Positions 597 to 56,198 of a stretch of DNA of 64,000 nt are shown here, piece by piece. Location: the IMG/VR virus record IMGVR_UViG_3300042006_000024; one strand, 5' to 3'. The notes beneath the pieces are model-generated. The model was not told where the DNA came from, did no database searches, and worked only from the letters and a program-made list of their open reading frames with translations. The translations under genes were made by a program, and so were the position numbers. Within the stretch, counting starts at the first letter, position 1. Each line of letters opens with the position of its first letter. This DNA is from a virus. Its lineage: Duplodnaviria; Heunggongvirae; Uroviricota; Caudoviricetes.

Positions 597-1565
597 ATGG
601 CTTCTTTCAAAGAACATACAGCGAACATCTTGCAAAATGGCCTGGCGCGTACTAACCGATTCCAGGTACTCATTCCTACACCTATGATGCGCAATGATGC
701 TATTGGTGATGAATCGAGTGATGAGTTCGTAGGGCCTAAACCACCTGTCTCCAAACTCAAAGCGTTGTTTGGTGAAGCAGTCAAAGTGATTCGTATCTTC
801 ACTGGTGGTGGTTCTGCTGAATACACCCGTGGTCTTGATTTGATGTGTTCACAGACTGAACTTCCTGGCAAGACGATCAACACGTCCGAGACCAAGTATA
901 ACGGTGACGTACACAAGATTGGTCAGTCATTGATGTACGGCAACCAGCAGTTCACCTTTCATGTGTCACAGGACATGTATGAAAAGACCATCATCGATCA
1001 GTGGATGAATATGGTCGTTGATCCTGAAACGCATGAAGTTAGTTATCTGACCGACTATGCGGTAACGATCAACGTGTTCCAGCTTGATCAGAACGACAAG
1101 ATTGTCCATGCAATCGCGCTGATTGACGCATTCCCAGTCATGATGAACCCACTGACATTGTCGAACAGTGAGCATAACAACGTGCACGAATTGATGGTTC
1201 AGTTTGCCTATCGTCGTTGGATTAACCTTGATCTCTCAGCAGACCCTGAGAACAGCATGGACAGTCTACTTGATACACCACTAGGTCCGTACCTTGCGCC
1301 GATCTTGTCGAACCCTGTGGTACAGCGTGGTCTTGAATATGTGAAGAATACAACCGGCCTCGATCTGCAAGGCGAAGCATTGAACATATATAAGCAGGTA
1401 GACGACATCGTCAAAAATACAACTGGTGAATCGATTAACAAATCTGTTGGTCTGATGAACTCAATCAAAGCCTCACTTGATGTCAACGATAAAATCACCC
1501 AAGCCGATGCAGGCAAGTTGTTTGATTTCGTTGAAGGTGCAGTGCAGAAATTTAAACCAAACTAG
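597..1565 (+). CDS. hypothetical protein (322 aa)
   Basis: Long ORF with an ATG start. Wins over the antisense ORFs it overlaps by length and gene packing. Confidence 0.6.
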   Translation: MASFKEHTANILQNGLARTNRFQVLIPTPMMRNDAIGDESSDEFVGPKPPVSKLKALFGEAVKVIRIFTGGGSAEYTRGLDLMCSQTELPGKTINTSETKYNGDVHKIGQSLMYGNQQFTFHVSQDMYEKTIIDQWMNMVVDPETHEVSYLTDYAVTINVFQLDQNDKIVHAIALIDAFPVMMNPLTLSNSEHNNVHELMVQFAYRRWINLDLSADPENSMDSLLDTPLGPYLAPILSNPVVQRGLEYVKNTTGLDLQGEALNIYKQVDDIVKNTTGESINKSVGLMNSIKASLDVNDKITQADAGKLFDFVEGAVQKFKPN

Positions 1566-5100: not shown

Positions 5101-5669
5101 TATGCAACCTTCAAGTCAAGTAGGAAATCACTAAGTTCGAAAAGATCAAACGTTGTGTTGATGTTGAAGCAGCGAACGTTATGTTCTTTGGCGATTCTCC
5201 ATGCAGTGGCGGTACCACCTTCAGGAACGCCTTTACGATCAACCGGCGCCCAGCATATAAGGAACTTCGATGGGTCGTCAAGTGAATGACCAAGCACCTG
5301 AAACACATTACGTGTGTGTAGGGTTCTAGCACCTTTCGAACATGCATTCCAATCGGGGTGCACACTCTTAGCGATCTGAACCGCCTTTTCCCAAATCACC
5401 GCAGGGACTTGTTCAGGGACTGTATAATTCAAACCCTTCTTTCGACCTTCAAAGCCATCCCACGGCAGGTAGATGTCGTAGAACTGTTTCGGACTACGGA
5501 TCAGATATTGCTTTGCACCGTCCTCAAACGCTGTGTCAGCCCCTTCAGCGCCACCCGAACGCAGTGTGTAGTGCGCGTGTGCGAGACGACTGCCAAGGGC
5601 TTTGAGGACTTCACATTGGGTCTTTGGCGTCCCGCGTGAGCCAACGCCTGTGTAGTAGAGGTGTTTCAT
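5100..5669 (-). CDS. DprA/Smf-like (SLOG) Rossmann-fold protein
   Basis: Motif GVGSRGTPKTQ...LRSGGAEGADTAFEDGA matches the DprA pattern G(S/T)R..P......SG.A.G.D.A..GA. Confidence 0.4.
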   Translation of the reverse strand: MKHLYYTGVGSRGTPKTQCEVLKALGSRLAHAHYTLRSGGAEGADTAFEDGAKQYLIRSPKQFYDIYLPWDGFEGRKKGLNYTVPEQVPAVIWEKAVQIAKSVHPDWNACSKGARTLHTRNVFQVLGHSLDDPSKFLICWAPVDRKGVPEGGTATAWRIAKEHNVRCFNINTTFDLFELSDFLLDLKVA

Positions 5670-10555: not shown

Positions 10556-10576
10556 ATCGTCTCCTTTGTTAGTTGA

Positions 10577-10628
10577 GCTTTACTTTGTCGAGATGCGCAC
10601 TCTAACACGTCATTCGACAAAGTAAAGC
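10577..10628. repeat. 15-bp perfect inverted repeat (gctttactttgtcga / tcgacaaagtaaagc) with 22-nt loop
   Basis: Read directly from the sequence, in the gap between the RNA ligase stop and the next gene's RBS. No T-tract follows it. Confidence 0.7.
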
Positions 10629-10640
10629 CTCTATTTCAAA

Positions 10641-12950: not shown

Positions 12951-13289
12951 TTACCTCAAAAATGGATGTGGGAGACAGACTTGGATGTAAGCTTCACCTG
13001 GCTCGCCTTCACCTTCAAGACATCTGAAGCAGTTGGTAGGGAAGCCCAGCATTGTAAACAACTCTTGATGTTCCTCTAGAGTAGCCTCGCGGCCAAGTTC
13101 ATCAAGCGTATTCACGCGCAACCTGTTCTCAACGTTAACCTGACTCAGTACGACAGCAACGACACTAAGCTTAGAGTTGATGAACGCCTCTTCAACAGAA
13201 TGCATGAAGCGGTTGACGTTATCATACTGGCGAATCACGCGTTGAACGCGCACGCGCTTAGCCATTTCACTTGCTAACAAACGGTTCAT
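12951..13289 (-). CDS. hypothetical protein (112 aa)
   Basis: ORF, ATGA-coupled upstream. Confidence 0.5.
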   Translation of the reverse strand: MNRLLASEMAKRVRVQRVIRQYDNVNRFMHSVEEAFINSKLSVVAVVLSQVNVENRLRVNTLDELGREATLEEHQELFTMLGFPTNCFRCLEGEGEPGEAYIQVCLPHPFLR

Positions 13290-13453
13290 TTTTGCTCCAG
13301 GAATTGTTGGGACTCACCTTCACCAATACAGATGGCGATTGTCTTACCCAGTTTAACAACTTCAGTGAACACGAGGCTACCAATAACATGGTTGAACGCA
13401 ACTGCATCGGACATCAAAGAGTTGAAACGGTCTTTATCGATTTGAACGATCAT
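13286..13453 (-). CDS. small hypothetical ORF (55 aa), first gene of the operon
   Basis: ATG at 13451-13453. Its stop overlaps the next gene's ATG as ATGA. A promoter lies immediately upstream. Confidence 0.3.
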   Translation of the reverse strand: MIVQIDKDRFNSLMSDAVAFNHVIGSLVFTEVVKLGKTIAICIGEGESQQFLEQK

Positions 13454-13496
13454 GATATAAGGTCTCAGTCACTGTTGGTTACGCTGTCAGGCCCCA

Positions 13497-13525
13497 ATTG
13501 TAGTACACAGAATGCAATGCGTCAA
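13497..13525 (-). promoter_or_regulatory. sigma70-type promoter TTGACG-17-TACAAT
   Basis: Minus strand: -35 at 13520-13525, -10 at 13497-13502, 17-nt spacer. Confidence 0.5.
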
Positions 13526-13532
13526 GCGCTAA

Positions 13533-13775
13533 TCACACTACATCCAATTTATTTTTGTCTTCGAAGTATGCGTCAAGACGCTTGACGAACTTGGTAGCTT
13601 CACTGAACGCTTGACCGTCGTCCATCTTCAGCATGTCAAGCAAACGCTCTTGAGCGGTACGCAGAAGGGCTTTCAGCTCGCGGTTTTCGCGCTGTGTGTG
13701 AGCAAGTACCAAATTCGCGATGCGCGATGCTTTGTTAGGGTCTTCACCAGAGTAATAGAGAATACGTTCACTCAT
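13533..13775 (-). CDS. hypothetical protein (80 aa)
   Basis: ORF in a coupled small-gene operon. Confidence 0.45.
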   Translation of the reverse strand: MSERILYYSGEDPNKASRIANLVLAHTQRENRELKALLRTAQERLLDMLKMDDGQAFSEATKFVKRLDAYFEDKNKLDVV

Positions 13776-13990
13776 GATGTAATTACCTCGGCTTCAGTTT
13801 CGATCCATACGCGAGCACCACAAGCAAGAGGCTTATCGGGTGAATAGACTACGCGACTAGGGCCTTTAATCTCGACCTCATGCGCGTAACGATTTTCCTT
13901 GTACGTCTTCACAGTAAGAGTCGGTTTGTTCTCACCGTTCTTCGCGTTCGACTTGATAACATGTTGGTTCACATGTATGACTGTTTTCAT
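13772..13990 (-). CDS. hypothetical protein (72 aa)
   Basis: ORF with an ATGA overlap. Confidence 0.45.
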   Translation of the reverse strand: MKTVIHVNQHVIKSNAKNGENKPTLTVKTYKENRYAHEVEIKGPSRVVYSPDKPLACGARVWIETEAEVITS

Positions 13991-13991
13991 G

Positions 13992-14300
13992 TCAATACAA
14001 ATCCTCGCTGAACAGTTCGGTCGAACCCTGATTACCAGACTTCAGACGGCGCTTGTTGAGTTGACCACCAGCCAGAGCGATCTTGTAAGCCTCACTGCGA
14101 TCCATGAAGACACCGAACTGGTCGATAAAGCCTTCTTCATACTCACCAAGGCCATCCGATTCGATCAGACGGTCTTCGTTCATACGGTCAAGTTGTGAAT
14201 GCATGACCATATCAAAGTGACGTGCACCTGCAATGATGACCTTGCCATAACGAACAGCCGCACAGACGACGAAACGCCCTTCAATCAGTACAGTGGACAT
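13992..14300 (-). CDS. hypothetical protein (102 aa)
   Basis: ORF. Confidence 0.5.
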   Translation of the reverse strand: MSTVLIEGRFVVCAAVRYGKVIIAGARHFDMVMHSQLDRMNEDRLIESDGLGEYEEGFIDQFGVFMDRSEAYKIALAGGQLNKRRLKSGNQGSTELFSEDLY

Positions 14301-14470
14301 TAGAGGCAGCCTGCATTAGGCTGCTGTTGGTGACGCTTGTGATGATCTTCCATCAAAGCCTCACGGATGGCGTTCTCAAGCATGAACCTGCGATCATCAG
14401 CGCAGTCGGCATTACGGAGTGGGTCAATGTAGCGCTGTGCAATAGCACGAACGCGGCTTTCATCTAACAT
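14300..14470 (-). CDS. small hypothetical ORF (56 aa)
   Basis: ATG at 14468-14470. TAATG overlap with the 102-aa gene. Below the track cutoff. Confidence 0.3.
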   Translation of the reverse strand: MLDESRVRAIAQRYIDPLRNADCADDRRFMLENAIREALMEDHHKRHQQQPNAGCL

Positions 14471-14472
14471 GA

Positions 14473-14727
14473 TTACAGTCCTAATGAGGTTTTGAGAAGT
14501 TGGATTGCCACGAGGTTATCTTGCTCAAGTGCTGAGCCTTTATACCCGTCGTATTCATCGTACATCGTGTGATGTTGGTGGTTCGCTTCGATACACATCA
14601 AAGCATTCGCAAACACCCGAAGGCTCAGAGCGCGGGCTTTGATTTGGTAGTCATACTCGATGTGCGAAACAGTTTTGCGATTTTCGAGGTCAACCAAAGG
14701 CTTTTTGTGTTCGGCGTAAAGTGACAT
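14473..14727 (-). CDS. hypothetical protein (84 aa, internal start MSLYAEHK)
   Basis: The longer 117-aa version would contain the promoter. The ATG at 14725-14727 has an RBS (GAGGGGAT). Confidence 0.45.
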   Translation of the reverse strand: MSLYAEHKKPLVDLENRKTVSHIEYDYQIKARALSLRVFANALMCIEANHQHHTMYDEYDGYKGSALEQDNLVAIQLLKTSLGL

Positions 14728-14757
14728 GATGATCCCCTCTTCACATTTATTCCGTGC

Positions 14758-14786
14758 ATAGTAAAGGGGCCGAAGCCCCTTGTCAA
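14758..14786 (-). promoter_or_regulatory. sigma70 promoter TTGACA-17-TACTAT with a GC hairpin (UUCG loop) in the spacer
   Basis: Minus strand: TTGACA aggggcttcggcccctt TACTAT. Confidence 0.55.
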
Positions 14787-14800
14787 AGGATTTGTTGGAC

Positions 14801-14986
14801 TTAGAAGTCGTCAGCGAGGTCAGCAACAGCAGTCACAAGACCATCGAAGTCTTCATTAGGACCGTAGACGTTGGCGAGTACAAACACAGCATCTTCATCA
14901 ACGCCGTTTTCTTCAGCGAGCGAACGCAGATAGTGGGCACGAGATTTGTAGCCATTATCAGCGTAGACGTTCTGTGCGATGTTCAT
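14801..14986 (-). CDS. hypothetical acidic protein (61 aa)
   Basis: ORF with an AGGAG RBS, directly downstream of the promoter at 15027-15055. Confidence 0.45.
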   Translation of the reverse strand: MNIAQNVYADNGYKSRAHYLRSLAEENGVDEDAVFVLANVYGPNEDFDGLVTAVADLADDF

Positions 14987-15026
14987 GATGTAACTCCTGC
15001 TTCACGTTGTTTGTTTTGATGTGTCC

Positions 15027-15055
15027 ATGGTAAAGGGCCCGAAGGCCCTTGTCAA
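15027..15055 (-). promoter_or_regulatory. sigma70 promoter TTGACA-17-TACCAT with a GC hairpin (UUCG loop) in the spacer
   Basis: Minus strand: TTGACA agggccttcgggccctt TACCAT. Paralogous to the element at 14758-14786. Confidence 0.55.
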
Positions 15056-15071
15056 GCATTTTGTGTGAGGA

Positions 15072-16010
15072 TTATTCTTCGATGTAGCTGAAGCTTTCGC
15101 ACACATGGTTCGGGATCAGTTGACGATGCTGAATCCAGCCTTTGAAGTTACCTGAATGGAAGACACCTTTGCGATCCATGTGAGTGATACCCTCCTGCCA
15201 TTCGGTCAAATGCTCATATGCACTATCACCCAAGCGCGGTTTCTCGATTGGAGTACCCTGGTGCTCGAACGGGCTAGCGTGTACTTTATCGGCCCCTACA
15301 AGACGATCATAGAGCCCTACAGCTTTCTCAAGGCTGTCATCACTCTTACGATACGACACTTGGGCACAACATGACGAACTGATCTTCAGGGCTTCAGCCA
15401 GGGTGTACTCATGAACATCTGTACCGCTACCTTCAAGGAACTCGCTCCAGTAGCCGTCGAAGTAGAACGGAACGTGCCACTCACCAGGTAGCAATAGACG
15501 CGGCGAACTTTCGTTGTATGCAGCAAGCATCACGTTAGCCAGGACTTTGATGGTCGGATCAGCCATCTCGCAATGACGCAACCAGAACCAGTTGTCATAT
15601 GAAGTCGAAGTCACAACCACTTTGATGTTCTGGGCGAACTCAGTACCACGGTTGGCGACTTGCTTGTGATAACCCGCTTCAGCAAAACCTTCACTGAACT
15701 TGGCAGCGCTCAGTGCCATCAGCTTCCACCATTCTTGAGGTGTGTAGCCGTTGATCAGTTCGAAGTGTTCACCAGCGTCCTGCATACCAGTCTGGTTCTT
15801 ACCGAAGTGAACAGGCATTGCAGGGTCGTTCATGACACGATCAAGCACAGCCTTTGTAGGGATAGCGCGTGAACTTGCGGCATTACGCGAGAACTCACGG
15901 TGAGTCATCAGCTCGGCGTGAACGATGCGCGGATAGTCGAGGACGAAGGTCGTAATGCGGACACCATCTTCATTAATGGAGTCAGCAATGATTTCAGCAG
16001 TAACGGTCAT
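15072..16010 (-). CDS. thyX: flavin-dependent thymidylate synthase (ThyX-like)
   Basis: HREFSRNAASSR matches the ThyX RHR-x7-S motif region. 312 aa. In the td position next to the nrd genes. Confidence 0.6.
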   Translation of the reverse strand: MTVTAEIIADSINEDGVRITTFVLDYPRIVHAELMTHREFSRNAASSRAIPTKAVLDRVMNDPAMPVHFGKNQTGMQDAGEHFELINGYTPQEWWKLMALSAAKFSEGFAEAGYHKQVANRGTEFAQNIKVVVTSTSYDNWFWLRHCEMADPTIKVLANVMLAAYNESSPRLLLPGEWHVPFYFDGYWSEFLEGSGTDVHEYTLAEALKISSSCCAQVSYRKSDDSLEKAVGLYDRLVGADKVHASPFEHQGTPIEKPRLGDSAYEHLTEWQEGITHMDRKGVFHSGNFKGWIQHRQLIPNHVCESFSYIEE

Positions 16011-16183
16011 ACAGTTTCCTTAGGATTAGTGTGGGTCAGACATGCGACGTCGAAATTGACAATTCGAATATCGTTTAGGTCATCCACGTATGAGCATGTT
16101 GCCTTGACGCCTACAAGTTTCTCAACAGTCATTTCAGGACTACCACTGTTCAAGAAAACGACGTCACCTTGTTTGATTGTCAT
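16007..16183 (-). CDS. small DUF2158/YodC-like protein (58 aa)
   Basis: MTIKQGDVVFLNSGSPEMTV matches the DUF2158 signature. ATGA overlap with thyX. Confidence 0.4.
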   Translation of the reverse strand: MTIKQGDVVFLNSGSPEMTVEKLVGVKATCSYVDDLNDIRIVNFDVACLTHTNPKETV

Positions 16184-16185
16184 GA

Positions 16186-16572
16186 TTAGTTACCGTTATG
16201 AGCGAATTGGTCGAGGATGTGTGCGTCTTCTTCCTCGAAGACATGCGCAGGGATTTCTGGCAGTTCTGTGGCTTCAAGTGGTGCAGAGTTTGAAACACTT
16301 TCCAGAACTTCAGCATCATCACCGTAGTGTTGTTTGCGTGCGATCATACCTTCAATGCGCCAGATCTTGTCGAGGGCTTCCTCACGCGAGTACTTGCGAC
16401 CCAGTTCATCTTTGAACTCTTCAGGGTTGATCGGTGCACTTTCACCAGTGACGTAATAGCCACCCCTGGTGTAAATGATGCACATCATGAAACGATCACC
16501 ACGAGTGAGGTACTCTTCAGTCAGAACTTGGTTCTCGATCCATTCGTGCGACAACTTTTTAGGATTTGCCAT
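16186..16572 (-). CDS. hypothetical acidic protein (128 aa)
   Basis: ORF. Confidence 0.5.
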   Translation of the reverse strand: MANPKKLSHEWIENQVLTEEYLTRGDRFMMCIIYTRGGYYVTGESAPINPEEFKDELGRKYSREEALDKIWRIEGMIARKQHYGDDAEVLESVSNSAPLEATELPEIPAHVFEEEDAHILDQFAHNGN

Positions 16573-16804
16573 TCAGACGCGCCTCAAGTTGAGTGTAACC
16601 ACCGATGTATTCAGACATACCTTCAGCGGTCAGGAAGATTTGTGGGACAGAACTGATCGATGTACCGACCATTTCTTCAAGTTGTTCTTTCTGGATATCG
16701 TCACCGACTACCTTATAGTCGAATTCGATACCTTTCATCTTGCACAACACTTTTGCCTTTTCGCAAAAGGTGCAGCCAGGACGGCCATAGATCAATGCCT
16801 TCAT
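16559..16804 (-). CDS. glutaredoxin-like protein (NrdC/NrdH-type redoxin)
   Basis: CTFC (CxxC) active site 10 aa from the N-terminus, 81 aa, adjacent to the nrd genes. Confidence 0.7.
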   Translation of the reverse strand: MKALIYGRPGCTFCEKAKVLCKMKGIEFDYKVVGDDIQKEQLEEMVGTSISSVPQIFLTAEGMSEYIGGYTQLEARLNGKS

Positions 16805-16836
16805 ATGTAACTCCAGAGGTGTATAATGTGATTTGT

Positions 16837-17115
16837 TTAGCGAGGGTTTATGATGAATTTGTTAAACACGAGGGCAATCGTGTAGTAAGGTTCAGCACAC
16901 GGGCGGTCTTCGCAGTCATAGTCCATCACGTAACCTAGATTCTCCATGTCGCGAATGAAGCTAACACGATCCCAAGGAACTCGCTTAGAATCGATCCTGA
17001 CGCGCATGTCTGAACTTGCGCGCATGCGTGGGAGTAAGTGATCTTTCAACCACTCTTCGAGCCCCTCACATGCTTGAGTTTCTTGGATCAGGGTGTACAT
17101 CTCGTGTGCGTTCAT
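16837..17115 (-). CDS. hypothetical protein (92 aa)
   Basis: ORF. Confidence 0.45.
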   Translation of the reverse strand: MNAHEMYTLIQETQACEGLEEWLKDHLLPRMRASSDMRVRIDSKRVPWDRVSFIRDMENLGYVMDYDCEDRPCAEPYYTIALVFNKFIINPR

Positions 17116-17306
17116 TGAACCAGACTCACAGTAAATGGCATATGTGTGTACGATGCATATACCAGTGCTGCACCGATACCCATAGGGATTAGAGCTTCAA
17201 AACAGAACCTGCCACTGAATGCATTACCTATGAACAGCAACACAAGGCCACCGATACAAAAGAACGCTCCAGCAAATGTAATGATCAACCATCCAATAAC
17301 AGCCAT
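17112..17306 (-). CDS. small membrane protein (64 aa, 2 TM)
   Basis: Hydrophobic ORF. A TTGATA-16-TGTATAAT promoter-like site lies just upstream at ~17348-17380. Confidence 0.45.
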   Translation of the reverse strand: MAVIGWLIITFAGAFFCIGGLVLLFIGNAFSGRFCFEALIPMGIGAALVYASYTHMPFTVSLVQ

Positions 17307-17367
17307 ACTTCACTCCTAATAATATATAAGCCCAACGCAATAGTGCGTCAGGCTATTATACATGTGA

Positions 17368-18456
17368 TTAGAAGTCAGTATCAAGCTCAGTTTCATCAAC
17401 GTTCATATCAACTTGGCCGGTTTGATACTGAAGGATAGTGTCTTCCTGTGGTGCAGGTTGATCATCATCACCAGTTTCATTCAGGAACTTGCGCATCCAA
17501 GGGATAGGCTCTTTAACCGGAACGGTGAAGTTTGGCTCAACACCATTACGGCGCATGCACTTACCTACATGGTATTGCAAGTAAACGATCAGCTCTTGTT
17601 CAGTCAGACCGACAATCGGGCCTTTGCTGAACAGATACTTGATCCACTCAAGTTCTTGACGATAGACAGCATACAGGATTGCTTCGGCATCAGCCTGACA
17701 TTCAATCGCGATCTTCGCCATATCAGGGTCTTCTTTCGGACTCTGACGCAGGACAAACTGAGTGAAACCACAGTGGAACGCTTCGTCTTGACGGATCAGT
17801 GTAACGATCTCACCAGAACCCTTCATCTTACCACGGTTGGCAAACGAGAAGGTGCAAGCGAAACTTACATGGAAACGAATCTGCTCAAGGGCGTTGACTG
17901 CAACCATGCACAGGTAGAACGCTTTCTTGGTGCGATAGTCGCCGTAGTCGTATTCTTTGATGCACCGCAGGAGTTCGTCATAGTACTTGCTGATGTCGTC
18001 AGAACACTCGGCGATCTCACGGATCTCCTTCATCGTGTCATAGATTTCAGAGGCGTTGGCGTAGACGTTCTCAATGATATGCGTGTAGCTGCTCGAATGG
18101 ATGCCCTCGTAGAAGTTCCATGCGTTGATGAATGCCTCTGCCCATGAGTCAGACACAATCGGCAAGAAACACAGTGCAGGGGCACGGCCTTGAACGCTGT
18201 CGAGGATGATTTGACGCTTCAGGTTCGATGAGAAAACATGCTTCTCAGCTTCGGTGAAGTCGTTGTAGTCAATCTTGTCTTGAGACATGTTGACTTCAGT
18301 TGGTCGCCAGTAGTTGGCCAACTGGTTTTCAGTCAGACGTTTAACCATCGGATACTTGACGACGTCATAGCGCTGAATGTCAACAGTGCCAGCCTCATCG
18401 AAAAACATCTTAGGCTTGTAAGTACCGTTTACATCACGGAAGTATAGAACAGACAT
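17368..18456 (-). CDS. nrdB: ribonucleotide reductase class Ia beta subunit
   Basis: 362 aa with ferritin-like di-iron motifs (EAFHCGF...). Confidence 0.9.
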   Translation of the reverse strand: MSVLYFRDVNGTYKPKMFFDEAGTVDIQRYDVVKYPMVKRLTENQLANYWRPTEVNMSQDKIDYNDFTEAEKHVFSSNLKRQIILDSVQGRAPALCFLPIVSDSWAEAFINAWNFYEGIHSSSYTHIIENVYANASEIYDTMKEIREIAECSDDISKYYDELLRCIKEYDYGDYRTKKAFYLCMVAVNALEQIRFHVSFACTFSFANRGKMKGSGEIVTLIRQDEAFHCGFTQFVLRQSPKEDPDMAKIAIECQADAEAILYAVYRQELEWIKYLFSKGPIVGLTEQELIVYLQYHVGKCMRRNGVEPNFTVPVKEPIPWMRKFLNETGDDDQPAPQEDTILQYQTGQVDMNVDETELDTDF

Positions 18457-18501: not shown

Positions 18502-20790
18502 TTAGATTACACAGGACGGGCAGGACGCTTCGTCTTCTTGCTCAACTACTTCTGGCACAGCACAATCAAGCGCAAGACTCTTCTCCTCTTCGGTCTTGAT
18601 CATCTTACGGTTGTTGTGGTAGTAGCCAGTTTTCCCGCCGAGTTTATAGATCAATGTCATGTCATTCAGAATCACGGTCGCCGGTACCTTGTTGTCAGGG
18701 TACTTAGTGTTGTCGTAGCGAGTGTTCAGCGAGATAGCCTGATCCATACGCTTCTGCATAATGCAGGAGATTTTGATGTAACCGTGAAGATTAACGTCCC
18801 ACTCAAGTTGGTACTTGTGCTTCAGGCGATCATACTCAGGCACAACAAACTTAGTACCAGACTTAGCAACGATCAGGTTGCGAACAGGCTCTTGACCATT
18901 AGTCATGTTCTGCACACGCGAAGACGTTTCAGACGGCATGTTGCACATCAAGGTCGCGTTACGAATGCCCGATACCTTCATGCGCGCACGCAACGGCTCC
19001 CACGGCATACGCTCAACATGAGGAATAACTTCATCAATGCCTTTCTTGCGCACGTCTTGAGGGAAGATGCCCTGAGCGTATTTGGTGTTTTCAACTTTAC
19101 CGCATGCACCGTACAGTTCAGCAAGTTCAACCGACGCTTGAGTCAGATAGAACGCCATCGCTTCCATGTATTCATCGACAACTTCAAACGCACCTTCATC
19201 GAACTTCAGACCACGTTTAGCCAGGAAGTAAGCGAGGTTGTTTACGCCGATGCCCAGAGGACGATACCAGTCAGTGCTGTTTTTCGCAGCGGGCAGCAAG
19301 TATGGCTGATAGTCAAGCAAGGCGTCAAGTGCGAACACAGCAAGACGGCAAGGAACTTCGAAGTCAGACGGCTTCTTGATTGCACCCCAGTTGATTGCAC
19401 TCAGGTTGCACAGACTGATCAGCGCGTTCATGTCCTCAAGACTCATCAGTTCGATGGTCGGCAGTGTCACTTCAGTGCACAGGTTCGACATGCGAATAGG
19501 TGCGTTCTTAGCAACAAAACTACCCTGTTCGTTCGAGTTGTCGACGAAGTGGAAGTAAACACGCGAGGTCGAAGAACGCTCGGTAGCGATCATGTCACGC
19601 AGTTTGCTACCTTCGATGATACGACGGGTTTTGGTTTCGTCTTTCTCATACAGCTCATACAGACGCGCAAACTCAACTTGGTCATCGCAGAACGCCTTCT
19701 GAAGCAGTGGAACTTCCTCAGGGGAGAACAGGGTGACGGCTTCGCGCTTGAGAATACGTTTCCACAGATAACCGTTCAGGTTGAATGCGTGGTCAGCGTG
19801 ACGAATGCGTGTTTCTTCAGTGCCTTTGTTGTTCTTCAGTACCAGCAGCTTCTCAACATCCAAGTGCCAGATGTTGTGGTAGTAAGTCTCGCTACCCTTA
19901 CGCATGCCGCCCTGACTAGAAGCCCCTACAATCGCTCGTGACGCTTGAGCAAAGCCAATCACGCCAGTAGTCGTCACGTCACCGTTACGAACAGGCTGCC
20001 CCTCAGCACGCAGGTTAAACACGCCAAGACCGATGCCTGCCTTGTTAGTCGCATACTTCAGCACTGCTTGATAGGTCGCACCAATCGAGTCAATCGAATC
20101 GCCCATTTCAATCAGGGTGCAACTTGCGCCTTGTGGGTTCGGTGTACGAATCGATGCAGCGATCGGACTCGGGATACTGATACCCGCTTCAGACAGCTGG
20201 TTGTAGTAGCCTTTGACCATCGTGATGCCGAAGCGATCAACGTACTTGCGCATCAGAACAGCGGCTACCAGGATGTAGGCCACTTGAGGCGTTTCGTGGT
20301 AGACCTTCTGCTTACGATTCTGCACCAAATACTTGTCAAGCCACTCACGCGCACCCGAGATACGGAAGTTAAAGTCGTTGTCATGCTTGACAAACGATTC
20401 AATCTTGGCCCATTGCTCAGGCGTGTACATGTTCAACAGGTCTTTGTGATACCAACCCGACTTGACGTTCTTTTCAACGATCCCGTACAGCGAAGGAACT
20501 TCGAACTGACCATAAACTTCTTTGCGCAGTGCCAGCATAACCAGACGACCAGCAACCAGGTCATAGTTCGGATAATCTGGCGAGATGAGTTCGTGTGCAG
20601 AGTCGATCAGCGAGGTATGCAAGTCAGACGTTTTCATGCCGTCATGAAACTTCAGTCCAGCCTGTGCTTCGATCTCAGAAGGTGAAACGTTGCTTACGCC
20701 GTCACATGCCCATACTAATACCTTGTGAATCTTGTTGATGTCCAACAGTTCGCGTGAACCATTGCGCTTAATGAGGAAAATATCTTTCAT
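18502..20790 (-). CDS. nrdA: ribonucleotide reductase class Ia alpha subunit
   Basis: 762 aa. N-terminal ATP cone and catalytic motifs (NLCTEV, C-terminal CPSC pair). Confidence 0.9.
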   Translation of the reverse strand: MKDIFLIKRNGSRELLDINKIHKVLVWACDGVSNVSPSEIEAQAGLKFHDGMKTSDLHTSLIDSAHELISPDYPNYDLVAGRLVMLALRKEVYGQFEVPSLYGIVEKNVKSGWYHKDLLNMYTPEQWAKIESFVKHDNDFNFRISGAREWLDKYLVQNRKQKVYHETPQVAYILVAAVLMRKYVDRFGITMVKGYYNQLSEAGISIPSPIAASIRTPNPQGASCTLIEMGDSIDSIGATYQAVLKYATNKAGIGLGVFNLRAEGQPVRNGDVTTTGVIGFAQASRAIVGASSQGGMRKGSETYYHNIWHLDVEKLLVLKNNKGTEETRIRHADHAFNLNGYLWKRILKREAVTLFSPEEVPLLQKAFCDDQVEFARLYELYEKDETKTRRIIEGSKLRDMIATERSSTSRVYFHFVDNSNEQGSFVAKNAPIRMSNLCTEVTLPTIELMSLEDMNALISLCNLSAINWGAIKKPSDFEVPCRLAVFALDALLDYQPYLLPAAKNSTDWYRPLGIGVNNLAYFLAKRGLKFDEGAFEVVDEYMEAMAFYLTQASVELAELYGACGKVENTKYAQGIFPQDVRKKGIDEVIPHVERMPWEPLRARMKVSGIRNATLMCNMPSETSSRVQNMTNGQEPVRNLIVAKSGTKFVVPEYDRLKHKYQLEWDVNLHGYIKISCIMQKRMDQAISLNTRYDNTKYPDNKVPATVILNDMTLIYKLGGKTGYYHNNRKMIKTEEEKSLALDCAVPEVVEQEDEASCPSCVI

Positions 20791-21509: not shown

Positions 21510-21588
21510 ATCGGGTGATTCCTAAACGGTTATTGAAAGTGAATGTTGCCTATAACTTTCATTTATAACCGAAGAAACCACCCGATAT
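21508..21588. repeat. long inverted repeat (atatcgggtg / cacccgatat, extendable to ~14 nt) around a 55-nt loop containing TATAAATG
   Basis: Read from the sequence. The proximal arm contains the ATG of the zinc-ribbon ORF. Confidence 0.55.
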
Positions 21589-21594
21589 TCAGGA

Positions 21595-25739: not shown

Positions 25740-27094
25740 AGCGCATCGAGGTCTTTGATAAACAGCGCGTCTGTGCTGGTTTTCTCAAGGGTCTCGATAT
25801 CTGCCTTCACACCTTTCGCTGCTTGCTCTGCCTCAGCAACTTTCTCCATTGTGAGAGAACTGATTTGCATAGCAAGTAAGCGATCCATGTACTTCAAGTC
25901 AACCACTGCACTGAACTCGGCTTCAAGCTCCGAACGTTTCTTCTTGTGCGGGTCTTTCATCTTCGAGTTCCAGTAGGTGATGAACTTGACCTTGTTTTCG
26001 TTCCACTTCAAATCCTCGGCCATCGCCTCAAGCAACTTCTGCTTGCGAATCACATAGATCCCTTTCCTGAACTCAATGAACGCCAACAGGGCTGCATAGA
26101 CGTTGTCAAAGCGTTGCAAGTTCGCCCCGATGTTCCAGAGCGTGACGTTCTCACCGAAGCGATGCACCAACTTGAAGATTGATTTCAGTTCGACGATTTC
26201 CTTGCGCGCAACTTCACGCGGGACAGTGATGATAAACTCAAATCCATCCTCAGTCGAGTTATTGTCGAAGTCTTTGACCTTACCATCATCCATCAACTTG
26301 ATCAGGATTTCCTTGAACTTGTCGACGTCATAGGTGATAGGCAAGTGCGTGACCTTCAGGGTCGTTGTATTGATCTTCTCAATCCGACCGTGAAACTCCC
26401 ATTGCGTATCAGATGCACCCTTGACAACTTCACCACCCCATGCACCGAAGTACGGCGTCATTGCCGCATCAATCGTGCGCTGTTGTACTGCAACACCCTG
26501 AAGCAATTTCTTCATCAGGTCAGCAACTTTCTTCGGATCGCGGGACAAGATCTTCGATGCGTGGCCAGTACCAACACCCTGAGCACCGTTGACCAACCAG
26601 AAAGGAATGATCGGGAAGTAGTTCAGCGGCTCCATCTCCTTACCTTCTTCAAGGCGCGATTCAAGCAACAGGTCGTCATCACGGTGCAGATACTTGCGCA
26701 TGTATGGGCTTGGCTTTGTATAGATGTAACGCACGGCAGACGCTTCAGAACTCATGATCGAACCGAACTGTCCGATAGGCGTGAACAAGTTGACGTTGTT
26801 GCTGCCAGGGAAGTCTTGCGCAAGCTTAACTATCGTCTCACACAATGAGTTCTCACCGTGCTGATACGCTGTCACCTTCGCCCCATGTGAACCAAGTTGC
26901 GCAACCTTGATCTCAGATGTCCCGTGCGTGAACATTCCATAGACAGCTTTCCGTTGCGAGTCTTTGAACCCATCCACAATAGATGGGATACTGCGCACGT
27001 TGTCGGCGTTGGAAAAGATCTTCAGGTCATTGTTGATGAAGTCCTTGAGTCGGTATTTCGAGTGATCTGGGTTATGCTGTATGAATAATGACAT
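25736..27094 (-). CDS. DNA topoisomerase II medium subunit (gp52-like, GyrA-type)
   Basis: GyrA-like N-terminal motifs. Start placed at MSLFIQ with a GGAGG RBS, one nt after the upstream stop. Confidence 0.85.
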   Translation of the reverse strand: MSLFIQHNPDHSKYRLKDFINNDLKIFSNADNVRSIPSIVDGFKDSQRKAVYGMFTHGTSEIKVAQLGSHGAKVTAYQHGENSLCETIVKLAQDFPGSNNVNLFTPIGQFGSIMSSEASAVRYIYTKPSPYMRKYLHRDDDLLLESRLEEGKEMEPLNYFPIIPFWLVNGAQGVGTGHASKILSRDPKKVADLMKKLLQGVAVQQRTIDAAMTPYFGAWGGEVVKGASDTQWEFHGRIEKINTTTLKVTHLPITYDVDKFKEILIKLMDDGKVKDFDNNSTEDGFEFIITVPREVARKEIVELKSIFKLVHRFGENVTLWNIGANLQRFDNVYAALLAFIEFRKGIYVIRKQKLLEAMAEDLKWNENKVKFITYWNSKMKDPHKKKRSELEAEFSAVVDLKYMDRLLAMQISSLTMEKVAEAEQAAKGVKADIETLEKTSTDALFIKDLDAL

Positions 27095-27095
27095 A

Positions 27096-29215: not shown

Positions 29216-29584
29216 TTAACGACCGAAGACGTAGCCTGGTACATAGAAGAACAGACCGTCCGCGACGTAGACTTTCACGACTGACTTGTTACCAGTGTTT
29301 GCGCCAATCACAAGATTGAGTTTATCGCCTACGTTGATGATGCCGCAACGTTTAGTGCCGAACATATGTTTCATGACTGCGGGCGTCTTGTGCGCGAGTG
29401 TCAGTTCTTCTAGGGTACGGCAGCCGGCCCCTTCATCGACAGCAGTAACGCTTTCTGTTTTGATTTCATGGACAATGAGCCCACCGTCTGCACCTCTGGT
29501 AATAGATGTGTCGGCGTTTGCAGACATCGCGGCCAGTAACAGTGCAGCGCTCAATACAGTTTTCATGTTCATTTGATTTCTCAC
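29216..29584 (-). CDS. secreted protein with cleavable signal peptide (122 aa)
   Basis: MNMKTVLSAALLLAAMSANA signal. Has its own promoter and is followed by a terminator. Confidence 0.5.
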   Translation of the reverse strand: MRNQMNMKTVLSAALLLAAMSANADTSITRGADGGLIVHEIKTESVTAVDEGAGCRTLEELTLAHKTPAVMKHMFGTKRCGIINVGDKLNLVIGANTGNKSVVKVYVADGLFFYVPGYVFGR

Positions 29585-29619
29585 ATATGGTTAATTAAAG
29601 TTAGACTTGCTCACGTATG

Positions 29620-29649
29620 AGTATACATCGGAGTTTGGCACTTTGTAAA
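29620..29649 (-). promoter_or_regulatory. sigma70 promoter TTTACA-18-TATACT
   Basis: Minus strand. Lies between the terminator and the ATG at 29584. Confidence 0.45.
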
Positions 29650-29650
29650 G

Positions 29651-29685
29651 TAAAAAGGCCGCCTTAGCGGCAGCCCTTTATTACA
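29651..29685 (-). terminator. intrinsic terminator after the vWA gene
   Basis: Minus-strand RNA GGCUGCC-gcuaa-GGCGGCC (one G-U pair) then UUUUU. Confidence 0.5.
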
Positions 29686-29697
29686 GCGAGGTAAGAC

Positions 29698-34978: not shown

Positions 34979-35025
34979 CTCACATCACTCCAGGGTTGGC
35001 CTAAAAGCATCACGAATCGTTGGAT

Positions 35026-35092
35026 ACGAATTATACAGTGGATTGCATGCCTGTATAATAGTATTTTTAAATCAATTGAATCTGAATAATAG
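35026..35092. repeat. repeat unit R1: ATTATACAG-N11-CTGTATAAT palindrome plus TTTTTAAAT..TGAAT tail
   Basis: Read directly. Gives TGTATAAT extended -10-like hexamers on both strands. Confidence 0.6.
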
Positions 35093-35123
35093 TTAAATTC
35101 TTTCAGGTCTGGATCGTTCAGGA

Positions 35124-35190
35124 ACGAATTATACAGTCAAAATTTGATCTGTATAATAGTATTTTTAAATTGAATAAGATTGAATGATAG
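35124..35190. repeat. repeat unit R2 (second copy of R1)
   Basis: Same arms and spacer length, 98 bp downstream of R1. Confidence 0.6.
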
Positions 35191-35271
35191 ATAAAACCAT
35201 TTACTGGGTTTGACTCGTGCTGAATCGATCAATAAATAATCTGAATAGAACTCATAACAGATAATAGTCAT

Positions 35272-49130: not shown

Positions 49131-49153
49131 AGACAGAGCTTTGTGAAGGTAGG

Positions 49154-49459
49154 TTATTTAGCGTTATTACTGATCAGCAACATACGCTCATCATCACAGT
49201 ACAAGTAGGAATCCCACAACAGAATACCTTCACCCGTCTGAGTCATGCGACCCAGGACATTACGATCATCGAGACGCTTGATCACTCCGATATGCGCGTT
49301 GATGACAATCGTATGGTTGCCAGCGAGTTTCCTGATCAGCCAGTGGCGAAAGTTTGCAAGCATTGTTGCACTGCTGAACGGCAGAATATCACCAGAGCCA
49401 GCAGGTGGTGCTTCGCGCAAGTCGAGGTAATCGGGTTCTGTTTGAGACCATGAAGTCAT
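49154..49459 (-). CDS. hypothetical protein (101 aa)
   Basis: ORF. Confidence 0.45.
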   Translation of the reverse strand: MTSWSQTEPDYLDLREAPPAGSGDILPFSSATMLANFRHWLIRKLAGNHTIVINAHIGVIKRLDDRNVLGRMTQTGEGILLWDSYLYCDDERMLLISNNAK

Positions 49460-49482: not shown

Positions 49483-49773
49483 TTACGCGGCAGAGCTAAC
49501 GTCTTGGGCATACGGAGCCAGGAAGCGTTCGTCGATAGCTTCGTGTTGGTGATGGGACTTGTACTTGCGACCGATGATGGCGACATCATAGTCATTGACC
49601 TGGGTATCGTAGTTGAATGTCGCACGAATAACACCGACCAGACCGTACAGCGATTCGTCTGCTGCCAAAACATTCGTCTCACCGATGAAAGAGACGCCTT
49701 CTGGGTATGTGATTCGGACGAAGTCATTTGCTTTGAATTTGGGAGTGTTCATATGGTGCAATTCCTTTCTCAT
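49483..49773 (-). CDS. hypothetical protein (96 aa)
   Basis: ORF. Confidence 0.45.
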   Translation of the reverse strand: MRKELHHMNTPKFKANDFVRITYPEGVSFIGETNVLAADESLYGLVGVIRATFNYDTQVNDYDVAIIGRKYKSHHQHEAIDERFLAPYAQDVSSAA

Positions 49774-49835
49774 GATAAAAAGTCTAACTCACGAGCGCAT
49801 TCTAGCAAGTGAGTTAGCACAGTACAAGCCTTTAG

Positions 49836-50117: not shown

Positions 50118-50160
50118 GATGAGTGCTCCGAGTGATGACGATGGTGTAGCTCATGAGTCG

Positions 50161-50189
50161 ATTATGGCTCAATCACTACACCTTGTCAA
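50161..50189 (-). promoter_or_regulatory. sigma70 promoter TTGACA-17-CATAAT with conserved CGACTCATGAG leader
   Basis: Minus strand: -35 at 50184-50189, -10 at 50161-50166. Confidence 0.5.
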
Positions 50190-54588: not shown

Positions 54589-54629
54589 GACTGATGCTCC
54601 GAATAATGTATTTGTTAACTCATGAGTCG

Positions 54630-54658
54630 ATTATGGTGCAGTCGACTCACACTGTCAA
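54630..54658 (-). promoter_or_regulatory. sigma70 promoter TTGACA-17-CATAAT with conserved CGACTCATGAG leader
   Basis: Minus strand: -35 at 54653-54658, -10 at 54630-54635. Paralogous to the promoter at 50161-50189. Confidence 0.5.
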
Positions 54659-55642: not shown

Positions 55643-55724
55643 GATTTGATACCTCTATGATTTAATTGATACTTCATTGGTGTTGCATTTGCAGCATGTG
55701 ACCTTTTCGGCCACATGTCAACCT

Positions 55725-56114: not shown

Positions 56115-56198
56115 GTGATGTGCTCCTGCGCATGTTATTAGTTATTACCTCACATGCGCAGTATACGACGGATCCAATCGTATTGTAAACAACAAATT

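Follow-up and report, generated by a model that had tools for sequence, protein, structure and literature searches.

We analysed a 64,000-nucleotide (nt) stretch of a tailed virus (Caudoviricetes; IMG/VR record IMGVR_UViG_3300042006_000024), hereafter called the window, and focused on two short intergenic elements of its minus strand, A and B, in which a hairpin occupies the spacer of a sigma70-type promoter. Both elements were located in an early minus-strand region that carries nucleotide metabolism genes and small open reading frames (ORFs). In the direction of transcription, the locus comprised the gene for the flavin-dependent thymidylate synthase ThyX, element A, an ORFan of 61 amino acids (aa), element B, and two further ORFans of 84 and 56 aa (Table 1). 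According to tblastn, ThyX of the window was 75% identical at the aa level to gp176 of the Pseudomonas putida phage pf16 (Chakrabartyvirus), which was called a peripheral T4-like phage by its authors (PMC5587285). The window was considered T4-like because it encodes NrdA, NrdB, the large subunit of topoisomerase II, a gp5-like hub/lysozyme and a gp6-like wedge protein; a glutaredoxin/thioredoxin-like protein was also detected. Through ThyX we assigned the window to the pf16 lineage. A megablast search of 2.5 kb around the elements against GenBank phages gave no match, and closer relatives were found in IMG/VR, namely L006/L123, L003/L124 and L005/L125 (94–98%, ~85% and ~84% nucleotide identity, respectively).

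The original prediction had described two minus-strand promoters with a TTGACA -35 box, a 17-base-pair (bp) spacer and a TACCAT or TACTAT -10 box, and direct reading of the coordinates and spacers gave the same elements. The core of A and that of B comprised 29 nt each, with spacers of exactly 17 nt, and the two formed direct repeats that were identical at 27 of 29 positions and 269 bp apart. Each matched the sigma70 consensus at 10 of 12 positions and was oriented with its downstream gene. Element A began 17 nt past the stop codon of ThyX (TAA, 15074..15072) and element B 15 nt past that of the 61-aa ORF (TAA, 14803..14801). Both were followed by a leader of 30–40 nt and a small gene with a ribosome binding site, as also predicted: AGGAG and an ATG at 14986 for A, AGGGG and an ATG at 14727 for B. 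The stem in both elements starts with the final A of the -35 box and stops one base short of the -10 box, thus filling the spacer completely, and the predicted energy of the hairpin was -12.1 kcal/mol in both cases (RNA fold). The prediction of a 6-bp GC stem capped by UUCG was right about the cap and about the GC-rich character of the stem; the stem itself, however, has 7 pairs, two of them A-U and five G-C, and the UUCG loop is closed by a C-G pair. Core, leader and a GTGAAG motif together make up a cassette of roughly 75 nt, which was found repeated before unrelated genes.

Table 1. Coordinates of the two composite elements, their leaders and the neighbouring genes in the window.
Feature	Position	Strand	Remarks
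Element A, nested promoter/hairpin core	15055..15027	minus	TTGACA-AGGGCCTTCGGGCCCTT-TACCAT, from sequence and fold; -35 TTGACA 15050-15055, hairpin AAGGGCC-UUCG-GGCCCUU 15033-15050, -10 TACCAT 15027-15032
Element B, nested promoter/hairpin core	14786..14758	minus	TTGACA-AGGGGCTTCGGCCCCTT-TACTAT, from sequence and fold; -35 TTGACA 14781-14786, hairpin AAGGGGC-UUCG-GCCCCUU 14764-14781, -10 TACTAT 14758-14763
Leader of cassette A	14987..15026	minus	A/C-rich initial transcribed region ggacacatcaaaacaaacaac; GTGAAG 15000-15005; Shine-Dalgarno (SD) AGGAG 14994-14998
Leader of cassette B	14728..14757	minus	gcacggaataaat; GTGAAG 14739-14744; SD AGGGG 14734-14738
ThyX, flavin-dependent thymidylate synthase	15072..16010	minus	A read-through transcript would bear hairpin A at its 3' end
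61-aa ORFan between A and B	14801..14986	minus	No PHROG match
84-aa ORFan, first gene after B	14473..14727	minus	No PHROG match; inside the mosaic block
56-aa ORFan, second gene after B	14300..14470	minus	No PHROG match
Mosaic (replaced) block	14316..14737	minus	Spans the 84-aa and 56-aa genes; 55-80% identical to L006

We searched the window for sites with TTGACA (at most one mismatch), a spacer of 16–18 nt that encloses a perfectly paired stem of 6 bp or more, and TAnnnT, and recovered only A and B. In 300 dinucleotide-preserving shuffles of the window the mean number of such sites was 0.037, and no shuffle reached two. The bare skeleton TTGACAA-N5-TTCG-N5-TTTACYAT gave 43 matches in the metagenome collection; the three from this clade had a complementary stem, while the remaining 40 had 0–3 pairs. 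A chance origin of A and B was excluded by the shuffle test and this skeleton control. A host-derived repeat was rejected as well, given that an exact-pattern scan of bacterial and archaeal genomes recovered no copy of the element. The original prediction had proposed to look for further copies: we found them in L006, L003, L005, L002, L004, L226 and pf16, and none in the window beyond A and B. Among the matches listed in a degenerate scan of viral contigs there was also one nested example in an apparently unrelated contig, L057 (IMGVR_UViG_3300029787_001740, positions 1474-1503, minus strand), which reads TTGACA-AAGCCCC TTCG GGGGCTT-TACAAT and lies upstream of an ATG; the nested design is thus found beyond the pf16-like clade too. 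An E-value search of Rfam over positions 13000-17500 assigned no family to A or B and gave a single sub-threshold match, to VrrA, at 17322-17432. We also considered 'aaaTGCTTGAca' in element A as the MotA box of a T4 middle promoter and rejected it, given its distance of 19 bp from the -10 box (12 +/- 1 expected) and the replacement of TGCTT by CGCTT in L006.

Elements A and B were present at the same positions in all three relatives, L006, L003 and L005. The original prediction had named loss of the hairpin from homologous positions of related phages as an outcome that would count against it, and the hairpin was kept at those positions in the three relatives and, for B, in pf16. The 29-nt cores were almost unchanged in L006, L003 and L005, while the upstream intergenic bases varied. 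Element B was identical in these relatives, and the first ~24 nt of its leader (14757 to ~14734) were nearly constant, with one change, in L005; divergence of the leader started at about 14736, inside the SD sequence. Behind a gp41-like helicase gene, L002, L004 and L226 also had copies of the A type, which shared the leader and preceded unrelated genes; L002 and L006 come from one sample. Both hexamers and their spacing of 17–18 bp were kept in 13 of 13 clade copies while the flanks diverged, and the -35 box was a perfect TTGACA in all of them except one (TTTACA).

In an alignment of 14 copies (the 13 from this clade and the unrelated L057), the stem positions were paired in 100% of cases and four of the seven pairs had changed on both sides, whereas none of 500 shuffles did as well. 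Stems of the types GGGCC, GGGGC, GGGGCC and GCCCC were observed, so that the pairing and the C(UNCG)G loop are constant but the stem sequence is not. The GTGAAG motif was located 0–4 nt upstream of the SD sequence in 13 of the 14 cassette copies, including both pf16 copies (in L001, which is pf16, at 5397-5402). We rejected GTGAAG as a general translation signal of this genome: GTGAAG-N-RGG occurs only four times in the window, and of these only the two at A and B are part of such a cassette.

The comparison with pf16 (KU873925; about 75% identity) covered its complete 158-kb genome and recovered exactly two nested composites. One, at 113279-113308, is the orthologue of B, located between homologous genes; it reads TTGACA-AAGGGCCTTCGGGCCCTT-TACTAT with an 18-nt spacer, and both hexamers are intact although the flanks have diverged. 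The other, at 49152-49181, reads TTTACA-AGGGGCC UACG GGCCCCT-TACTAT and has a different stem with a C(UACG)G loop (49157-49176). Both are labelled only as 'Rho independent terminator' in the GenBank record, and the orthologue of B had been called a terminator by ARNold (PMC5587285). Directly after ThyX, pf16 carries a separate terminator, AAAAAGGCGC-UUCG-GCGCCUUUUU, followed after 13 nt by a TTGACA promoter that the pf16 authors listed as sigma70 (PMC5587285) and whose leader (…acacaaacacacaGTGAAGAGG…catcATG) resembles that of A. This arrangement is one of two tandem modules of nearly the same sequence, AAAAAGGCGCTTCGGCGCCTTTTT-tgtgttt(c/t)agtgc-TTGACAC, at 113681-113704 and 19010-19033, of which the first is the positional orthologue of element A. 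In this comparison, a nested element and a tandem terminator-plus-promoter replace one another at one genomic position. Because pf16 has a separate terminator and promoter where the window has A, the swap argues that the nested element performs both tasks, and we regard it as the strongest sign of this that the sequences offer.

Elements of a similar design are known from other T4-like phages. Arbiol et al. (2010) described the promoter-early stem-loop (PeSL) of phages RB49 and phi1, a sigma70-consensus promoter combined with a G(n)-loop-C(n) stem-loop; in the commonest class the stem-loop is placed between the -35 box and the -10 box, and the RB49 genome contains about 50 PeSLs (PMC2839356). 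The wild-type clone of PeSL206/205 gave about 13,000 Miller units, while most other clones carried -35 or -10 mutations, and the stem-loop of PeSL211/210 lowered lacZ comparably to rrnB T1 (PMC2839356). Our direct scan of RB49 recovered the layout TTGACA-GGGGATCNNNGATCCCC-TATACT, with a hairpin-filled 17-nt spacer, at 121708, 122853, 123266 and 158941, following the pattern TTGACA-GGGGATC(N3-5)GATCCCC-TATA(C/A)T; the sites at 121708 and 123266 are the intergenic regions of PeSL206/205 and PeSL211/210. The RB49 and phi1 elements share with A and B the sigma70 -35 and -10 boxes, the 17-bp spacer filled by a hairpin, and the position between a stop codon and the next SD and ATG with an A/C-rich leader ('acacacatcaaaacgaaac' in RB49, which resembles 'ggacacatcaaaacaaacaac' of A). 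They also flank small ORFans and are tied to gene replacement between close relatives. The differences concern the loop, which is C(UUCG)G or C(UACG)G in the clade of A and B and a variable 3–5 nt within GGGGATC..GATCCCC in RB49; the hairpin energy (-12.1 versus -7.7 to -10.4 kcal/mol); the -10 box (TAC(C/T)AT versus TATA(C/A)T); the conserved GTGAAG in the leader of the A/B clade; and the lineage, since A and B belong to a pf16-like phage (Chakrabartyvirus) and PeSLs were originally found in RB49 and phi1.

Comeau et al. (2014) extended PeSLs to the Yersinia phage PST and the Vibrio phages nt-1/KVP40, whose stem-loop precedes the -35 box (PMC4122927). These PeSLs and the tandem modules of pf16 are, like A and B, composite terminator/promoter cassettes of T4-like phages; they consist of two adjacent parts, whereas A and B, by nesting, are about 35 nt shorter and give up a good U-tract. 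The hairpin itself is more widespread than the composite: the 18-nt AAGGGCCUUCGGGCCCUU was found in 329 phage records, mostly of Straboviridae, and in RB69, Aeh1, Muldoon, Pet-CM3-4 and MHG19 the same hairpin stands alone after a stop codon, without the -35 and -10 hexamers. Extra-stable C(UUCG)G hairpins in the intercistronic regions of T4 were reportedly described by Tuerk et al. in PNAS in 1988, and we take the 18-nt hairpin of A and B to be this classical type, with which it shares the loop, the closing pair and the position between cistrons.

Taken together, A and B are probably PeSL-type composite cassettes of a T4-like phage with a dual role as promoter and stem-loop. Most of the sequence-defined features of PeSLs are present in them; an AT-rich upstream tract and a high copy number are not clearly so. 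PeSLs are expected to recur many times per genome and to resemble one another over roughly 70–100 bp; the copies of the A/B clade are similar through leader and GTGAAG into the SD sequence, but they are few. The original prediction had given one element two roles, that of a promoter at the DNA level and that of an attenuator or 3'-end protector once read-through RNA is made, and had the hairpin under selection. It gains support from the conservation of the elements, from the tandem replacement in pf16 and from the RB49/phi1 experiments on equivalent elements; it had missed that the design joins the PeSL class with the intercistronic C(UUCG)G hairpin of T4. Its point that a GC-rich spacer should weaken the promoter is not needed, and RB49 argues against it: with PeSL206/205 at the activity given above, even a very strong promoter can have a GC hairpin as its spacer. 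Our literature search turned up no report of PeSLs from pf16-like phages.

That A and B are active as promoters, that they terminate transcription or stabilise RNA and that they cause recombination is inferred from sequence; they could work as follows. In double-stranded DNA, TTGACA, 17 bp and TAC(C/T)AT would recruit the host sigma70 RNA polymerase. Transcription would start about 7 nt past the -10 box, so that the element's own transcript would lack the hairpin and begin with the A/C-rich leader, GTGAAG and the SD sequence. In read-through RNA, which is the ThyX message at A and that of the 61-aa ORF at B, the spacer would fold into the extra-stable 7-bp hairpin capped by C(UUCG)G, with the -10 region doubling as an imperfect U-rich tail, UUUAC(C/U)AU. 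Partial termination (attenuation), shielding of the 3' end from exonucleases, or both would result, and each small gene would be insulated, starting and stopping by signals of its own. The repeated cassette may in addition offer homologous sequence at which recombination exchanges, removes or adds the ORFans next to it.

Several observations weigh against this reading. The -10 hexamers TACCAT and TACTAT match TATAAT at only four of six positions. The upstream AT tract is weak, with 64% (A) and 60% (B) A+T in the 25 nt upstream of the -35 box by hand count, compared to 52% for the window, and the tracts of RB49 are visibly richer. The copy number is low (two in the 64-kb window and two in the 158-kb pf16 genome versus about 50 in RB49). 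Independent covariation events are few, and the stem of A in L003 and L005 (GGGGC) is that of B, so that gene conversion between the paralogues could explain the covariation. The right junction of the mosaic block described below corresponds to a conserved gene end (PNAGCL-stop) and not to an element. Finally, the U-tract is imperfect: with the A-U pairs counted as tail, it is UUUACUAU in B (5 U) and UUUACCAU in A (4 U), and a consensus terminator scan called neither element. Efficient termination at A and B is doubtful because of this U-tract and the negative scan, and attenuation or RNA stabilisation appears more likely than full termination. A role at the RNA level is supported, both because the pairing and the C(UNCG)G loop are conserved and not the stem sequence, and because the same 18-nt hairpin stands alone between cistrons in the 329 phage records.

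The wide occurrence of that solitary hairpin would also suit another explanation, in which A and B are ordinary intercistronic terminators or RNA stabilisers and the hexamers are not functional promoters. Hundreds of T4-like phages have the hairpin but no promoter hexamers around it, the only label that the pf16 authors gave to the orthologue of B is that of a Rho-independent terminator, and the imperfect -10 hexamers point the same way. However, non-functional hexamers would hardly account for the retention of both boxes and of their spacing in all 13 clade copies amid diverging flanks, nor for the fact that every copy precedes an SD sequence and an ATG by a suitable distance. In addition, the position of A is taken in pf16 by an independent promoter whose leader is homologous, and the nested equivalents in RB49 are active promoters (PMC2839356), and we give this explanation a small chance. 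The opposite possibility keeps the promoter and denies the hairpin any role in RNA, the spacer being either neutral or of structural importance in DNA through a cruciform or through sensitivity to supercoiling. Spacer sequence affects sigma70 promoters just modestly, and the poor U-tract agrees with this possibility, but the conserved UNCG loop, the perfect pairing of every copy and the equivalence with the tandem terminator of pf16 indicate a role in RNA. A stem of 7 bp with a loop of 4 nt is, moreover, too short for stable cruciform extrusion, and we regard a promoter-only role as very improbable.

A further alternative accepts the promoter and sees in the spacer palindrome a DNA operator, bound by a dimeric phage or host regulator that would shut the early promoters, with the RNA hairpin being incidental. 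The two-sided changes in the stem do not argue against it, as symmetric changes would keep a DNA palindrome as well, and the inverted repeat does overlap the polymerase footprint. It is difficult to reconcile, however, with stem sequences that vary among the types listed above and with a conserved C(UNCG)G loop that is not palindromic. This loop is reportedly an RNA-specific stability motif (attributed to Tuerk et al., 1988), other T4-like phages have this hairpin at sites away from promoters, and the other promoter/hairpin composites in the window have unrelated stems; an operator thus has a slim chance at best. We finally considered an extended form of the composite-cassette reading, in which the nesting couples pausing or termination onto the next promoter, avoiding occlusion and handing the polymerase over for re-initiation, the ~75-nt cassette (core, leader and GTGAAG) is the very sequence that recombines and so drives the exchange of ORFans within the pf16-like clade, and GTGAAG is a cassette-specific signal for RNA processing or translation. 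As a joint proposal this is possible but unlikely.

The genes that surround the cassettes showed several rearrangements. Promoter A, the SD sequence, the 61-aa ORF and hairpin B would form a self-contained transcription unit. In this it is comparable to lambdoid morons, in which a gene also has its own promoter and terminator but whose borders lack repeated conserved cassettes (PMC2839356). In L005, a 142-aa protein (L005 6086-6514) has a C-terminal domain that corresponds to the 61-aa ORF. Its N-terminal domain, homologous to pf16 gp175, is missing in the window lineage directly after cassette A, which we interpret as a domain loss or gene split at this point. After B, the order of the 84-aa and 56-aa gene families is inverted in pf16. 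Compared to L006, its closest relative, the window was 98–100% identical from about 15900 (within ThyX) through B and most of its leader, and identity returned to 90–100% below 14315, on the other side of the mosaic block (Table 1); between about 14550 and 14340 the window was 90–96% identical to L003. The left junction of the block is the 3' edge of cassette B. This pattern indicates a recent replacement of the block by recombination, with one junction at cassette B. In L226, compared to L004, about 460 bp (one gene and one paralogue) are missing right after the A-type cassette. The three rearrangements that abut cassettes fit the published idea of portable homology for modular exchange, without proving it.

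We also detected other candidate control elements in the window. A second repeated promoter family, TTGACA-N17-CATAATCGACTCATGAG, was found at 50150-50189 and 54619-54658 on the minus strand; these are the two exact matches to the skeleton in the window (none in shuffles), and in both copies an inverted repeat spans the spacer, the -10 box and the start region. By its layout, this family resembles a further subclass of PeSLs in which stem-loop and -10 box overlap. More intergenic combinations of a sigma70-like promoter with a hairpin, in other registers, were observed on the minus strand at 49728-49835, 55643-55724, 56115-56198, 29573-29697 and 17307-17384. They include TTGTAC-17-TAGAAT with a 9-bp stem that runs from the spacer past the -10 box and is followed by a T-run; TTGACA followed directly by ATGTGGCC-GAAAA-GGTCACAT; ATACGA..TCGTAT combined with TTTACA-18-TATACT; TTTACA-18-TATACT preceded by a terminator; and a hairpin of 11 bp after TTGATA-18-TATAAT. 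Long near-perfect hairpins of about 17 bp were located upstream of genes at 10556-10640 and 21510-21594 on the minus strand (-32 and -37 kcal/mol, respectively), which are neither classical terminators nor promoter composites. In the divergent intergenic region at 34979-35271, which separates the minus-strand block from the plus-strand baseplate genes, GAATTATACAG…CTGTATAATAGTATTTTTAAAT occurs twice, and both copies enclose an inverted repeat; these copies may be late or bidirectional control sites. A region of about 1.35 kb at 25740-27095, between convergent and divergent gene blocks, contained only very short ORFs. A tRNA scan of the window found none; pf16 has a tRNA cluster elsewhere.

The dual design of promoter and attenuator has been published for PeSLs since 2010, so that A and B are a further example and not a new kind of element, and they open no new question of principle. 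Their novelty lies in the lineage, the tetraloop version, the exchange between nested and tandem layouts at one locus, and the clean mosaic junction. The annotation of pf16 can be corrected at 113279-113308 and 49152-49181, which are listed only as terminators, and the 29-nt core would be a compact natural insulator-plus-promoter part and a candidate for synthetic biology in Pseudomonas. For the T4-like phages, the elements would extend the PeSL design to the pf16-like (Chakrabartyvirus) branch in a UUCG-tetraloop form, and they show that nested and tandem layouts can stand in for one another in evolution at one genomic position. The direct repeats A and B would be an existing substrate for the formation of mini-circles by recombination between flanking cassettes, and the junction at B would be an independent example of cassettes guiding modular gene exchange.

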